Sequence record: PV467749.1
DNA length: 64,000 nt
Reading direction: 5' to 3' (one strand)
Source of the DNA: a phage
Below are positions 31,725-47,787 of this stretch, piece after piece (the first letter of the stretch is position 1; each line of letters begins with the position of its first letter). The translations under genes and the position numbers were made by a program. The notes below the pieces were generated by a model. It searched no databases. It was not told the DNA's origin and saw only the letters and a list, made by a program, of their open reading frames with translations.

Positions 31725-31730
31725 ATACAG

Positions 31731-31757
31731 GCCAGTACTTGATACTGGCTTTTTTTG
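31731..31757 (+). terminator. rho-independent terminator
   Basis: GCCAGTActtgaTACTGGC + TTTTTTT. Confidence 0.8.
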
Positions 31758-31768
31758 ATTAAATATAG

Positions 31769-31790
31769 TATAATGAATAAGGGAGGGAAT
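31769..31790 (+). promoter_or_regulatory. RCC1-array leader cassette (-10 + SD), copy 2
   Basis: TTGATTAAATATAGTATAATGAATAAGGGAGGGAAT then ATG. Confidence 0.45.
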
Positions 31791-32939
31791 ATGTTACCTT
31801 TTGTAAGAATGTTTGATTATGGAAATGAAGCTCCTACCAACTCTGGTCGTTATAAAATATATTCCAGTGATTCTATGTATCTTCATGATACTTATACTGA
31901 CAAGTTGTATGCATCTTCTGCGACGAATTGGGGTACTGGTACAGGTGTAGCATCGAGTAAATTTATTCTTTGTGCGGAGAATGTTAAACGAGTTCTATTG
32001 GAAGATAACAGTAGTGATTGTCAATTGTATGAAGAGAAAGGTACTGGAAAAGTTTTTATCACTGGTAACACGAAGGCATTCACTGGTGTAACTGATAGAA
32101 AAACTTTGTGGACGGACTGTACTACGTGGATAACATCAAGTGGTATTAATGTTTCTGATATAAAATACATGAGTAGTTTTTATGATATGAAGGTGAATTT
32201 GATAACAAACGATGGTACATTGTATTGTTGTGGAGCTAACAATATATCGAACATATCATCATTTGGTGATGGCACAAACATTAATTCTTTTAACACATTC
32301 AAAAGAGTAGATACTATAACTTCGGTTAAAAAGGCTGTTGGTAACATTTATTTGCGAGAAGATAATACTTTATGGGGTTGTGGTTTTAACTATTACTACC
32401 AGTTGGGCACGGGTAATCAAACTTCTATTACTGGGGTGACGATGATTTCTTCGGATGTTATAGATTTTAATGTAAGTTATCAGAGTACATTTTTTATCAA
32501 ATCGGATAATAATTTGTACGCTTGTGGTAAACAGTTCGGTGCACAATATGGGAACGAATTTGGTACAGGTGGTACTTCCTCTTCTACTGATATACAATAT
32601 AAAACTCCGACATTATTGAGTTCAGGAGTTTATACTCTATATACTTGTGTTGGTAACATGGCATCACATATTGTCAAAGCAGATGAAGTTCTATATGCTT
32701 CTGGATCGAATAGGTTTGGGCAATTAGGTGTTGGTAATAATAATAATCAGTACTCCTATACTCCTTCATATACTTCGTTTAATACTTCGTGTAATTTGGT
32801 ACGCACTCCATCTGGTTCACTTATACTTACTGACACTTCGAAGTTATATTATTCGGGTGCTTCATTTGTAGTAATGGGTGGTGGTGCTGGACAGAACGTT
32901 CTTAATTATACCGAAGTCGATATGTCATTTGTGCAGTAA
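31791..32939 (+). CDS. RCC1-like beta-propeller protein, copy 2
   Basis: MLPFVRMFDYGN; LWGCGFNYYYQLGTG, LYASGSNRFGQLGVG. Confidence 0.85.
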   Translation: MLPFVRMFDYGNEAPTNSGRYKIYSSDSMYLHDTYTDKLYASSATNWGTGTGVASSKFILCAENVKRVLLEDNSSDCQLYEEKGTGKVFITGNTKAFTGVTDRKTLWTDCTTWITSSGINVSDIKYMSSFYDMKVNLITNDGTLYCCGANNISNISSFGDGTNINSFNTFKRVDTITSVKKAVGNIYLREDNTLWGCGFNYYYQLGTGNQTSITGVTMISSDVIDFNVSYQSTFFIKSDNNLYACGKQFGAQYGNEFGTGGTSSSTDIQYKTPTLLSSGVYTLYTCVGNMASHIVKADEVLYASGSNRFGQLGVGNNNNQYSYTPSYTSFNTSCNLVRTPSGSLILTDTSKLYYSGASFVVMGGGAGQNVLNYTEVDMSFVQ

Positions 32940-32947
32940 ATTAATAT

Positions 32948-32977
32948 GCCAGTACTTGAGTACTGGCTTTTCTTTTT
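32948..32977 (+). terminator. rho-independent terminator
   Basis: GCCAGTACTtgAGTACTGGC + TTTTCTTTTT. Confidence 0.8.
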
Positions 32978-32990
32978 GTATTAAATATAG

Positions 32991-33012
32991 TATAATGAAT
33001 AAGGGAGGAAAT
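32991..33012 (+). promoter_or_regulatory. RCC1-array leader cassette, copy 3
   Basis: TATAATGAATAAGGGAGGAAAT then ATG. Confidence 0.45.
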
Positions 33013-45090: not shown

Positions 45091-45112
45091 TATAATGAAT
45101 AAAGGAGGAAAT
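45091..45112 (+). promoter_or_regulatory. RCC1-array leader cassette, copy 13
   Basis: TATAATGAATAAAGGAGGAAAT then ATG. Confidence 0.45.
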
Positions 45113-46288
45113 ATGTTACCTTTTGCAAGAATGGTTAAGTACGGAAACAGAGTTCCAGCACCTTCAGGTGTTATGAAGATAAGTACATCTCCATCACATA
45201 TGGGTATGTTATTTGATAGTGGTAACTTATATCTACGTGGAAATGGTGCACACTATATGCTAGGAAATAATAGCACTGCGTATGTGCAAAATGGGTGGGT
45301 ACAGTGTCCATATAAAGTTTCTAATGTTTGGTGCTTCTTTGCAGCAACAATTATACTTACGACTGACGGAGAATTTTACTTAGCTGGTCAAATGGGTTAT
45401 GTCGGTGTATCTGCATCACCAGTTCCTGGATGGACTAATATCACATCTTTATTGTCTACAATACCAGCACTTACTACAGTAGTAGATATAGCTGCTACTG
45501 AAACTACTGCATCAAATGGTGCGTTATTGATTTTGTTAAGTAATGGGGACTTATATGGGATTGGGCGTAATACAGGAGGTGCATTGGGTGTTACTGGTAG
45601 AAAAACAACGCCAATTCAGATTGCTACTGGGGTTACTATAATTGCGGGAACAACGGCTGGGGATGCTTTCCATTATGTTAAAAATAATCAATACTACAGA
45701 TGTGGGAATAACGCAAGTTACAACTTAGGATCAGGTTCTTCTAACCTTTCGACATTTACGGTAAGTACTGATATATCGGGAACAGTTATTGGTATTTCAT
45801 GTACTACATTAACGACTTCAGTACTTACATCTAATAGAAATAATATTAATGTATATACGGCTGGAAAAAACACTGATTATTGTTTAGGAATAGGGTATGG
45901 CGACACTACTAGTATCATGAGTCCATTTAGTGCCACTCCCGCAATTAGTGGTATTATACCAGATGCTGGGTCGATGAACAATCACAGTTTGAATTATTTT
46001 ATAATGGCAATGACACAGAATGGTAAACTTTATACATGTGGTAGTGGTGTTCCTCTTGGTTGGCCTGTTACTACTGCATCAGAAAGATCTTATTACCACC
46101 AGGTACAATATGAGGATATGGATGTTGCACCAGATGTTAATGCATTTTCAGTTCAAGGTGGTTCTGGTGTGTTATACGCGTTAGTGGGGACTAATGAGGT
46201 GTACTGGTGTGGTAACGGGTCTATGTTTCAGGAACAGAGTCCAGGTACACAACAAGTTAAAATGAAGAAAATGATTTTACCAGAATAA
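45113..46288 (+). CDS. RCC1-like beta-propeller protein, copy 13
   Basis: Start at MLPFARMVKYGN (the track adds 22 aa of translated cassette); LYGIGRNTGGALGV, YYRCGNNASYNLGSG. Confidence 0.85.
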   Translation: MLPFARMVKYGNRVPAPSGVMKISTSPSHMGMLFDSGNLYLRGNGAHYMLGNNSTAYVQNGWVQCPYKVSNVWCFFAATIILTTDGEFYLAGQMGYVGVSASPVPGWTNITSLLSTIPALTTVVDIAATETTASNGALLILLSNGDLYGIGRNTGGALGVTGRKTTPIQIATGVTIIAGTTAGDAFHYVKNNQYYRCGNNASYNLGSGSSNLSTFTVSTDISGTVIGISCTTLTTSVLTSNRNNINVYTAGKNTDYCLGIGYGDTTSIMSPFSATPAISGIIPDAGSMNNHSLNYFIMAMTQNGKLYTCGSGVPLGWPVTTASERSYYHQVQYEDMDVAPDVNAFSVQGGSGVLYALVGTNEVYWCGNGSMFQEQSPGTQQVKMKKMILPE

Positions 46289-46344
46289 AATGTGAAATAC
46301 AATGCATGTACTCAGTACTGGCTTTTCTTTTTTATTAAATATAG

Positions 46345-46367
46345 TATAATGAATAAAGGAGGGAAAT
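46345..46367 (+). promoter_or_regulatory. RCC1-array leader cassette, copy 14
   Basis: Cassette present; the upstream terminator arm is degenerate (ATGTACTCAGTACTGGC + T-run). Confidence 0.4.
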
Positions 46368-47717
46368 ATGTTACCTTTTGTTAGAATGTTTGATTATGGG
46401 AATACAGTAGATGTTCCAACTGTAAAGAAATTCGACTCCATTGGTATGGGTCATGATAGGAATGGTGGTGGTAATTGGTTTGGTGCAATATTAGCATCAA
46501 ATGGAAATTTATATGGTATTGGTCAAACAAAATATGTTTCTTTTGGTATAACACCAACCAATGGTACAGGAATTGAATTAGTACGAAAAAATGTAAACAA
46601 TTTTTGGCTACTATCAAATGGAATAATAGTTAAAGATAATGATGGTTCATATCATTTTTGTGGTGTATATGCAAATGGAATATTCACACATTCAAGTATA
46701 ACTACAGCACCTTTTATAACAAATGGTTTTATAAATGTATCTTCTTATTTTTCTAACGTAGGTGAAGTTGTGGAAATGGTATTCTGTGGTGGATATGATA
46801 AAGGTCCAGCAACATCATTAACCCCAGCATACACTTCAAAATATAGTTGTATTTTGGCAGCATTGAACACTAATGGTGAAATCTGGTATATGGGTTTGTC
46901 GATACAAGGTTTAATAAACAACTCCACATCAGATTACTACTTTACTTCTTTTACTAAAGATAATCAATTGACACAAAAAGCAGTTTCATTAAGATGCACA
47001 ATAGACATGTCACATAATAATGTGTATTTTGTTGGTAATAGACCTGTACTTTATGCCAAATTAGAAGATGGTACAATCGTAGGCAAGGGATATAATATAC
47101 GATATGGTATACAAAAACCAGCTAGTACAAACCAAGTGATTAAAACGTGGACTACAGTGGCTGTAATCGGAACAGCAGATGATTTTGATGCAACAAACGA
47201 AGGCATGATGTACTGCTCAAATTCACAACTATATCGCTGTGGTAATGGTGGTGGTTTTTCTTTCTGGAATGGTACAAGTAGTGTGTATTATATGGGCTAC
47301 AACGTTGGTATGTTTCTAATCGGTGCGAATGACGTCAACCGTGTAGCGGGTGGTTTTAACGTCCTAACTACAGGGATTAAAGATGATGTAGGTATAAATG
47401 TACCAACTTCATCCAGTACCAAAATACGAATGAACTACTGTGGAACTGTAATTTTTGAACCCGGAACAACATCAATATATAAAGCACATGGTGTTTATAG
47501 TGATTACTATGCTAGTCCTTCATGGCAAGCGGGAGCAGTCGCTTCATTTACATATGAAGACATTGGTATTAAAATCAAAGATGCTATGTATGTTGGTGGT
47601 ACTCTTGGGTTTACAACATATGGATTATTAGTGGTTAGTACTGAAGGTAAGGTATATTGGAGAGGTGTGTACAACGGTGTAACATATAAAACACTCACAG
47701 AAATACATTTGTTGTAA
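46368..47717 (+). CDS. RCC1-like/propeller protein, copy 14 (longest and most diverged)
   Basis: MLPFVRMFDYGN; 449 aa; weak blade signatures (LYGIGQTKYVSFG, LYRCGNGGGFSF). Confidence 0.75.
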   Translation: MLPFVRMFDYGNTVDVPTVKKFDSIGMGHDRNGGGNWFGAILASNGNLYGIGQTKYVSFGITPTNGTGIELVRKNVNNFWLLSNGIIVKDNDGSYHFCGVYANGIFTHSSITTAPFITNGFINVSSYFSNVGEVVEMVFCGGYDKGPATSLTPAYTSKYSCILAALNTNGEIWYMGLSIQGLINNSTSDYYFTSFTKDNQLTQKAVSLRCTIDMSHNNVYFVGNRPVLYAKLEDGTIVGKGYNIRYGIQKPASTNQVIKTWTTVAVIGTADDFDATNEGMMYCSNSQLYRCGNGGGFSFWNGTSSVYYMGYNVGMFLIGANDVNRVAGGFNVLTTGIKDDVGINVPTSSSTKIRMNYCGTVIFEPGTTSIYKAHGVYSDYYASPSWQAGAVASFTYEDIGIKIKDAMYVGGTLGFTTYGLLVVSTEGKVYWRGVYNGVTYKTLTEIHLL

Positions 47718-47723
47718 TATAGT

Positions 47724-47753
47724 GCCAGTACTCTGTACTGGCTTTTCTTTTTG
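47724..47753 (+). terminator. rho-independent terminator
   Basis: GCCAGTACtctgGTACTGGC + TTTTCTTTTT. Confidence 0.8.
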
Positions 47754-47765
47754 TATTAAATATAG

Positions 47766-47787
47766 TATAATGAATAAAGGAGGAATT
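47766..47787 (+). promoter_or_regulatory. RCC1-array leader cassette, copy 15
   Basis: TATAATGAATAAAGGAGGAATT then ATG. Confidence 0.45.

Follow-up and report, generated by a model that had tools for sequence, protein, structure and literature searches.

The window analysed here, a stretch of 64,000 nucleotides from the phage record PV467749.1, holds a tandem array of large genes for RCC1-like beta-propeller proteins, most of which are separated by near-identical copies of a short composite linker. This linker, of about 110 bp, comprises in order the stop codon of the upstream gene, a predicted intrinsic terminator (a GCCAGTAC/GTACTGGC stem of 7-8 bp with a variable loop, then a T-run), the 16-nt promoter-like motif TTAAATATAGTATAAT, which contains a perfect -10 without a -35, the strong Shine-Dalgarno (SD) sequence AAGGAGG, and the ATG together with the first 12 codons of the next gene. 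Through it, each propeller gene is most likely a module with a transcription start and stop of its own, translated as well as its neighbours, the hairpin being expected to terminate transcription and the motif to initiate it. Since the linker is the only DNA homology common to paralogs that otherwise cannot be aligned, it is also the likely site of homologous recombination, at which whole genes are inserted, deleted, replaced or transposed without breaking reading frames or expression; the exchange partners would be co-infecting Asteriusviruses or copies within one genome. We consider it probable that this double role, as regulatory module and as recombination site, explains the linker.

By its sequence, the window is that of an Asteriusvirus-type jumbo coliphage. 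A megablast search of GenBank phages with the region 31000-48000 returned 37 records, all of them E. coli or Salmonella Asteriusvirus-type jumbo phages, the closest being WPEC3 (98.9% identity), followed by CMSTMSU, EJP2, G17, Sharanji, SP27, PBECO4 and 121Q; coverage of the query reached at most 46% for any match, and the region is therefore a mosaic. The whole array (30477..50825, + strand) is larger than the 31725-47787 delimited in an earlier note on this DNA. It consists of 15 contiguous propeller genes spanning 30588 to 48939 on the + strand (starts at 30588, 31791, 33013, 34191, 35389, 36582, 37838, 38979, 40190, 41370, 42613, 43864, 45113, 46368 and 47788) and a sixteenth, starting at 49701, beyond one minus-strand open reading frame (ORF). 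The proteins, of 370-450 aa, match Pfam RCC1/RCC1_2 above threshold and PHROG 4219, annotated as "regulator of chromosome condensation", and each of the 15 contiguous genes begins with MLPF(V/A)RM(FD/VK)YGN. An AlphaFold (AF2) model of the 36582-37763 product (pTM 0.70) retrieved the UVR8, RPGR and RCC1 propellers with Foldseek (E down to 1e-18, TM 0.6-0.65), and by these matches the array products are seven-bladed RCC1-like beta-propellers.

The earlier note had described a near-identical terminator/-10/SD unit in eleven intergenic gaps, and such a unit is present in 11/11 of them, always in the order hairpin, T-run, (T)TGATT/TGTATT, TAAATATAGTATAATGAATAA(A/G)GGAGG, 4-6 nt, ATG. The gaps are 66-79 nt long, 22-25 nt separate the end of the hairpin from the -10, and AAGGAGG lies 4-6 nt 5' of the ATG in all copies. 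The 23-mer core TATAGTATAATGAATAAAGGAGG, at no more than 2 mismatches, occurs 12 times in the window, in every case on the + strand and within the array, against 0.01 copies in shuffled sequence. The hairpin pattern first proposed, GCCAGTACT N2-5 AGTACTGGC, had to be abandoned as an exact consensus, having just 3 literal copies, and survives in the gaps only in a relaxed form, the true consensus being GCCAGTA(C)-loop of 3-5-(G)TACTGGC with a stem of 7-8 bp.

All full copies lie on the + strand. Cassette 1 (31725..31826, filling the gap 31725-31790) carries its hairpin at 31729-31751, followed by the T-run, TAAATATAGTATAAT at 31760, the SD sequence, the ATG at 31791 and the conserved first 36 nt of the gene. 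The same layout is found in cassette 2 (32940..33048; gap 32940-33012; hairpin 32948-32967, motif at 32982, ATG 33013), cassette 3 (34123..34226; gap 34123-34190; hairpin 34129-34147, motif at 34159, ATG 34191), cassette 4 (35319..35424; gap 35319-35388; hairpin 35326-35344, motif at 35357, ATG 35389) and cassette 5 (36511..36617; gap 36511-36581; hairpin 36515-36538, motif at 36550, ATG 36582). Further downstream follow cassette 6 (41300..41405; gap 41300-41369; hairpin 41306-41324, motif at 41338, ATG 41370), cassette 7, which precedes a frameshifted gene (42540..42648; gap 42540-42612; hairpin 42547-42565, motif at 42581, ATG 42613), cassette 8 (43793..43899; gap 43793-43863; hairpin 43797-43822, motif at 43832, ATG 43864), cassette 9 (45043..45148; gap 45043-45112; hairpin 45047-45069, motif at 45082, ATG 45113), cassette 10, whose hairpin at 46304-46322 is degraded (GCATGTACTCAGTACTGGC) (46289..46403; gap 46289-46367; motif at 46336, ATG 46368), and cassette 11 (47718..47823; gap 47718-47787; hairpin 47724-47742, motif at 47757, ATG 47788).

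The remaining junctions of the array, likewise on the + strand, carry diverged or partial copies. Gene 1 is preceded by a promoter-only copy (30557..30587), TAAATATGATATAATGAATAAAGGAGGAAAT, with the extended -10 TGATATAAT and without a GCCAGTAC terminator hairpin upstream. Between genes 6 and 7 lies a diverged full unit (37764..37873) with a hairpin at 37766-37795 that is a compensatory stem variant (ACCAGTAC...GTACTGGT), a T-run, TAAATACATTATAAT at 37802, the weaker SD sequence GGAGA and an ATG at 37838. The junction of genes 7 and 8 is reduced to an SD sequence, GGAGAGAAAT (38969..38978), with neither terminator nor promoter, and the two genes are probably co-transcribed; the junction of genes 8 and 9 is of the same SD-only kind (GAGGAATT, 40182..40189), and these two genes are adjacent in 6/6 phages that possess the orthogroup of gene 8. 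The contiguous array ends with a terminator-only copy (48943-48968, within 48943..48975), AATGCCAGTACTCAAGTACTGGCATT followed by TCTTTT, which folds at -16.1 kcal/mol (z -7.4), and the sixteenth paralog (49701-50825) is preceded by a diverged promoter-like motif, TAAATAAAGTATAAC plus GGAGA (49670..49700).

The paralogs joined by these units are highly diverged. Their proteins share 26% identity within the window (range 20-50%), their gene bodies reach an identity of 0.609 when globally aligned, against 0.603 for shuffled controls, and only one pair of paralogs in the window has any blastn similarity. Pairwise identity is 81% in the hairpin and T-run, 92.6% in the promoter-SD part (-45..-1) and 88% in the first 36 nt of the coding sequence (+1..+36), but on either side it is only 59% (+37..+72) and 60% (the final 60 nt of the preceding gene), which gives the repeat sharp edges and a length of about 110 bp. 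The conserved start of the coding sequences thus stands as it had been described, and so does the picture of a short repeat flanking highly diverged bodies.

In the 12-residue head MLPFxRMxxYGN that this start encodes, M1, L2, P3, F4, G11 and N12 are invariant, and R6 and Y10 are conserved in at least 90%. Its codons are equally fixed: among 112 Asteriusvirus array genes, codon 2 is TTA in 111/111, codon 3 CCT in 112/112, codon 6 AGA in 103/109 and codon 11 GGG or GGA but never GGT, whereas the bodies of the same genes favour CCA (51%) and GGT (62%). Such frozen, non-preferred codons argue that the first 36 nt are kept in this genus at the DNA or mRNA level besides the protein level. The distant Salmonella phage Munch, which belongs to another genus, carries 16 or more RCC1-like genes (L009 332-18313), all starting with MIPFxRILxYGN, in which synonymous codons vary; these genes are mostly overlapping or translationally coupled and lack the cassette, and only 5 junctions combine a hairpin with TTAAATATAnTATAAT, so that the per-gene cassette state is far more developed in Asteriusvirus. 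In the model of the 36582-37763 product, residues 1-17 have a pLDDT near 40 and no secondary structure, which weakly suggests that the head region is a free tail outside the propeller blades.

Comparison with relatives indicates that whole genes have been exchanged at these units. The arrays of WPEC3, ECO103 4-12-1, TH47, G17, UE-S1, 121Q, PBECO4, ph0011, SP27 and Munch were examined; CMSTMSU (L002), whose record is riddled with frameshifts, was left out. The Asteriusviruses have common flanks, with an upstream run of minus-strand genes of about 60-75 aa and, downstream, a 216-aa minus-strand ORF and a run of genes of about 110-120 aa, between which the number of array genes varies from 5 in ph0011 through 6-7 in TH47, 9 in UE-S1, about 10 in PBECO4 and 11-13 in 121Q, G17 and SP27 to 15-16 in ECO103, WPEC3 and the window. 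With cassette 8 as blastn query, 1-16 copies per genome were found in 42 records; an exact-motif scan of IMG/VR retrieved only phage 121Q itself and no uncultivated relatives. The bodies, clustered at >=80% DNA identity, form 24 shared orthogroups and 8 singletons, that is at least 32 kinds, whose order varies among phages by insertions, deletions, replacements and transpositions: with labels assigned at an 85% threshold, the window reads L A G U H C I D B E J V M N O and WPEC3 reads A G C I D B E J P F Q O W N R. Copy number is not fixed between the same flanks, whereas the earlier note had named a strictly fixed number across relatives as grounds for refutation.

The breakpoints of synteny are located in the units. 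In all pairwise megablast comparisons, 418/429 (97%) of the internal ends of collinear blocks fall within -80..+60 of a paralog ATG, where about 12% would be expected if they were uniformly distributed; as the ends were counted over non-independent genome pairs and a blast block runs to the far edge of a shared repeat, what this figure establishes is that exchange involves genes as wholes, not the position of each crossover. The 5' ends of the blocks cluster at -80..0 and the 3' ends at +20..+60. Single junctions resolve some of the switches. The G|C junction of WPEC3 is chimeric, following the G|U junction of the window (cassette 3, the left parent) through the 5' hairpin arm and the loop, and the H|C junction (cassette 5, the right parent) from the T-run on, and its flank|A junction follows flank|L of the window up to ATG+12 and L|A thereafter. 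SD-only junctions also act as breakpoints, via the conserved 5' coding sequence (ECO103 ATG8, -16..+43; UE-S1 ATG9, -2). Moreover, 58/102 ortholog pairs with bodies at least 95% identical carry different 12-residue heads, as with MLPFVRMFDYGN and MLPFGRMVKYGN on bodies 97.7% identical. The switch points thus differ, lying at the hairpin/T-run, at ATG+12, at about +36 or in SD-only junctions, and crossovers at several positions inside the unit are the signature of homologous rather than site-specific recombination. Taken together, these comparisons make the reading of the units as recombination substrates, already put forward in the earlier note, well supported; that the exchange occurs during co-infection is what we infer from them.

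Three other accounts of how the array evolved have to be set against this. The earlier note had left open whether the array changes by accordion-like expansion and contraction or by cassette swapping. According to the former, the array would grow and shrink chiefly because cassettes of sister genomes cross over unequally and resident genes are thereby duplicated or deleted, a process for which direct repeats of about 110 bp are a suitable substrate and with which a range of 5-16 genes between conserved flanks agrees; unequal crossing-over, however, predicts identical tandem copies, and no near-identical copies were found in the 10 genomes, where 7/635 within-genome pairs have blastn similarity and the best reaches 74%. 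In addition, genomes differ in the content and order of orthogroups, through replacements and transpositions, and not in the copy number of one gene. An accordion mechanism thus has a slim chance of being the main process, and of the two possibilities it is swapping that stands, by gene order and chimeric junctions; the variation is better attributed, with support from these comparisons, to swapping and deletion of long-diverged cassettes from a genus-wide pool. It is very unlikely that the units are the mere remnant of an ancient tandem duplication, kept by purifying selection on the signals and on the N-terminal peptide with no recombination at the unit. Conservation of M(L/I)PFxR(I/M)xxYGN and of TTAAATATAnTATAAT across genera would fit such constraint, as does the head that is conserved even in Munch genes without a cassette, and yet this account leaves unexplained the shuffled order, the presence/absence polymorphism, the chimeric junctions, the different heads on bodies 98-99% identical, the frozen non-preferred codons and the conservation of spacer positions without known signal function; in close relatives, both gene order and gene content were seen to change, and the breaks lie at the units. 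An integron-like exchange, in which the hairpin would serve as an attC-like site for a dedicated recombinase, draws on the observation that whole genes between conserved imperfect palindromes behave as mobile cassettes, but the crossovers lie at varied positions, including SD-only junctions that have no hairpin, the array genes carry their own predicted promoters, unlike integron cassettes, and no integrase is annotated beside the array in the records of the relatives, the flanking ORFs having received no dedicated domain scan. We give this last account almost no credence.

With regard to the regulatory half of the proposed double role, the hairpin has the features of an intrinsic terminator. 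It folds in 10/11 gaps at -10 to -16 kcal/mol (z -3 to -5.4), and over all 13 copies in 12/13 at -10 to -16 kcal/mol (z -3 to -7), the degraded copy of cassette 10 giving -6.8 kcal/mol (z -0.8), and a T-run, TTTT(C)TTTTT, lies directly 3' of the stem, on the + strand only. Among 73 distinct hairpin copies from 11 phages, the seven core stem positions are paired in 70-73, with several G-U pairs and four compensatory double changes: GTCAGTAC/GTACTGAC, ACCAGTAC/GTACTGGT and, in Munch, GGCTAGTAC/GTACTAGCC and GACAGTAC/GTACTGTC. The GenBank record of G17 has ARNOLD terminators in the corresponding gaps (L005 17616-30536) and that of UE-S1 has repeat_region features of about 105 bp there (L006 16003-16107, 21662-21765); Rfam gave zero family matches across the window. 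The loops are hypervariable across the 73 copies. Loops of otherwise identical hairpins also form reverse-complement pairs across phages (TCT/AGA, TTGA/TCAA, TCA/TGA, TTT/AAA), of which the window itself offers examples at 41314-41316 (AGA) and 47732-47734 (TCT) and at 32956-32959 (TTGA) and 36523-36526 and 48951-48954 (TCAA), a pattern that suggests loop inversion by intra-palindrome template switching or recombination.

The promoter part is less conventional. Its -10 is a perfect TATAAT, and the best -35 hexamer at a spacing of 15-19 nt matches 2-3/6, in keeping with the earlier remark that no convincing -35 accompanies it; TTGATT, only 8 nt upstream of the -10, and TTGATA in a hairpin loop, 27 nt from it, were rejected as -35 candidates. 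TGn occurs in no internal copy, and only the promoter of gene 1 has an extended -10. The neighbouring minus-strand early region (12-25 kb) contains six perfect TTGACA-N16-TATAAT promoters and many 10/12 matches, which upholds the contrast drawn before between the cassettes and early promoters with consensus -35 and -10 elements. The T4-type late motif TATAAATA has only two exact copies in the 64 kb, at 61057 and 62299 (-), directly upstream of 59517-61028 and 61861-62259, which match PHROG virion structural protein families. The cassette was rejected as a T4-type, gp55-dependent late promoter, as it has ATTAAATA or TAAATATA (6/8) and not exact TATAAATA, and its motif ATTAAATATAGTATAAT has TAAATATAGT in common with one of the two late sites. 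The 16-nt motif TTAAATATAnTATAAT is kept in 5/5 Munch cassettes while the spacer between motif and ATG differs, which argues for a function. RCC1-like proteins have been found in virions by mass spectrometry, eight of them in phAPEC6 (PMC7247149) as well as GAP32 gp1 (PMC5259590), so that expression of the array at a time compatible with assembly is likely by analogy with these relatives. The cassette promoter may be of a variant late, a middle-like or an activator-dependent sigma-70 class. The autonomous, monocistronic transcription of each gene and the dependence on a phage factor that follow from the earlier note are predictions from the sequence.

Besides the dependence among block ends mentioned above, a number of points weigh against the linker being both regulatory module and recombination site. 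Sigma-70 promoters that have a -10 but neither a -35 nor TGn are weak as a rule. The TATAAT, if used as the -10, would leave a leader of only about 10 nt, the motif mismatches the phage's own late consensus TATAAATA, and a literature search for transcript-end data or a transcriptome of an Asteriusvirus found none. The units are 86.8% identical within genomes and 86.2% between them, so that genome-specific homogenisation is absent and concerted evolution of the units within each genome was rejected; the units appear instead to behave as one genus-wide pool. Finally, the sequence of the stem is conserved far beyond what a terminator would need, which makes a sequence-specific reader of the stem possible.

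The stem sequence also recurs outside the array. The stem core CAGTACTG has 61 copies in the window against 1.0 in shuffles, an excess of about 60-fold, and AGTACT, by far the top palindromic hexamer, has 274 copies where about 22 are expected (12.7-fold), at sites from 5234 to 63970, both coding and intergenic, densest at 5.2-30.5 kb and with none in 1-5233. A similar excess is seen in the WPEC3, G17, 121Q, PBECO4, SP27, ph0011 and Munch loci, and a literature search for AGTACT enrichment in phages returned nothing relevant. Minus-strand early promoters embed the palindrome in two forms, either adjoining the -35 (AAAAAGTACTTG(C/T)AA-N16-TATAAT) or in the spacer (TTGACA-N7-TCAGTACTG-TATAAT), for example at 23981, 23519, 22838, 22275, 21473, 20829, 18818 and 18499, and also at 25208-25181 and 20809.

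The hairpin might therefore be chiefly a sequence-specific recognition site, and a terminator secondarily or not at all, for a factor that reads the CAGTACTG palindrome. This factor might be a dimeric regulator that binds DNA with its centre near -44.5 of the -10, or else an enzyme of RNA processing that acts on a polycistronic transcript; the numerous CAGTACTG sites overlapping early promoters could be further targets of it. The near-invariance of the stem in 73 distinct copies whose loops vary freely speaks for this, as do the enrichment of CAGTACTG and AGTACT here and in relatives, the position of the palindrome next to the -35 (AGTACTTGCAA-N16-TATAAT) or within the spacer (TCAGTACTGTATAAT) of early promoters, and the lack of a -35 in the cassette promoter, which resembles activator-dependent promoters in this respect. 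On the other hand, each intact hairpin copy runs directly into a stretch of T, found on the + strand alone, the fold energies lie in the range usual for intrinsic terminators, and the rare changes in the stem are compensated; the abundance of AGTACT within coding sequence argues for a genome-wide property rather than an operator, and no candidate binding protein was identified. This main rival reading, a role of the hairpin chiefly as a recognition site, is judged rather improbable, and termination remains the preferred function.

The closest published counterpart of the linker is the promoter-early stem-loop (PeSL) cassette of T4-like phages, with its PmSL variant (Arbiol et al. 2010, PMC2839356; Comeau et al. 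2014, PMC4122927), for which promoter and terminator activity and the formation of mini-circles, by recombination between neighbouring elements, have been shown experimentally. Similarly to PeSLs, the linker has its predicted stem-loop terminator close before the promoter part, and an SD sequence and start codon at its 3' end; it is present in many copies, conserved over about 100 bp, in a hyperplastic region with gene insertions, deletions and replacements; the genes it flanks differ between close relatives, and crossovers occur at various points inside the element. Transcriptional insulation, here predicted, would likewise make the shuffling harmless. What the linker lacks is the strong sigma-70-like promoter with -35 and -10 about 17 nt apart, in place of which only a perfect -10 within a 16-nt motif is found. 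As a promoter-type variant, PmSL, was accepted by Comeau et al. (PMC4122927), a cassette without a -35 can be regarded as a variant and not as a non-relative. Other differences are that the homology reaches 36 nt into the coding sequence, that the genes are paralogs of one propeller family of 370-450 aa and not unrelated small ORFans, and that the copies vary much less among themselves (93% identity in the promoter part) and belong to an Asteriusvirus jumbo phage. In architecture and behaviour the array linker is thus PeSL-like, a type of element known for T4-like phages since 2010/2014, a link that the earlier note did not draw.

A second composite terminator/promoter element of the window, AAAGGGTTGACTTCGGTCAGCCCTTTTTGCTATAAT, fits the published definition of a PeSL better than the propeller cassette does. 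It takes the form GGGTTGACTTCGGTCAGCCC-TTTT-TGCTATAAT / AAAGGGTTGACTTCGGTCAGCCCTTTT-TGCTATAAT, with a -35 TTGACT inside the stem and an extended -10, and lies on the minus strand upstream of 53369-54142 and 58353-58766, with a variant before 59517-61028 and two more copies at 12608-12581 and 16294-16267.

The PeSL authors linked these elements to the polymorphic internal-protein (IP) locus of T4, whose products have a common N-terminal targeting peptide (PMC2839356, PMC4122927). The propeller array resembles that locus in being a polymorphic series of tandem non-essential genes with a common short N-terminal peptide on otherwise diverged products, and the T4 genes too are shuffled between related phages via conserved junctions (Repoila et al. 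1994, as cited in PMC4122927). The T4 proteins are small and basic, with an N-terminal capsid-targeting sequence cleaved at a defined protease motif, and the products here are large propellers with no evident cleavage motif. The morons of lambdoid phages (Hendrix and colleagues, as discussed in PMC2839356) are likewise single genes with their own promoter and terminator, but they have no conserved homology at their flanks, and illegitimate recombination is believed to move them; in the propeller array the regulatory flanks themselves are the recombination substrate. Integron cassettes with attC sites also form variable arrays of whole-gene cassettes between imperfect palindromes and within fixed flanks; they differ in being promoterless and moved by an integrase at a fixed site in the folded attC, whereas crossover positions vary here. 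The papers on Sharanji, fEgEco12, UE-S1, CBB and phAPEC6 and a comparative review of jumbo phages do not describe the cassette; the genome papers mention only multi-copy, variable "chromosome condensation" genes, and the terminators and the repeat, although annotated in the G17 and UE-S1 records, are left undiscussed in the UE-S1 and other genome papers just named.

Some further features of the array and its surroundings were recorded. Gene 11 (42613-43792) is frameshifted, with 59 codons followed by an ORF in another frame from 42716, and the same 59-codon truncation occurs in the orthologs of WPEC3, ECO103 4-12-1 and PBECO4; it may be either an inherited pseudogene or a programmed frameshift. 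The 216-aa ORF between paralogs 15 and 16 (48973-49623, minus strand; PHROG 34359, unknown function) is kept at the downstream edge of the array in all Asteriusvirus relatives examined, and the window, WPEC3 and TH47 have the outlying sixteenth propeller gene after it, which G17, UE-S1, 121Q, PBECO4, SP27 and ph0011 lack there. Two other tandem families flank the array on the minus strand, one of ORFs of about 61-75 aa (29060-30476) and one of about 104-123 aa (50862-53301), whose ORFs are tightly packed or overlapping, without terminator-promoter units between them, and whose gene membership varies among relatives.

By extension, the array might be for jumbo phages what the IP locus is for T4, a locus in which the head acts as a virion tag and a phage factor reads CAGTACTG, a proposal that we hold to be unlikely as a whole, though not negligible. 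If it were true, the MLPFxRMxxYGN head, encoded in the recombining linker, would be a virion-targeting or recognition tag, so that any propeller body spliced at a linker would automatically be expressed, tagged and packaged, and the genus would draw on a common, freely interchangeable set of at least 32 proteins carried in virions and serving host interaction or anti-defence, while the factor acting on CAGTACTG would shut early promoters and switch on the cassette promoters that lack a -35. Apart from this, the array offers an unusually clean natural case of modular shuffling, in which regulatory linkers are the sole common DNA in one family of large genes, with whole-gene gain, loss, replacement and transposition exactly at the linkers in ten genomes. 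It extends the PeSL concept from T4-like phages to Asteriusviruses of 350 kb, to promoters that lack a -35, and to homology within the coding sequence, by which an N-terminal peptide and the regulatory signals are exchanged together. It also accounts for the fact that, among Asteriusvirus isolates used in therapy, the "chromosome condensation regulator" genes are what varies most; a repeat array of this kind can mislead short-read assembly, and the linker may offer a ready-made insertion site and expression cassette for engineering Asteriusviruses.

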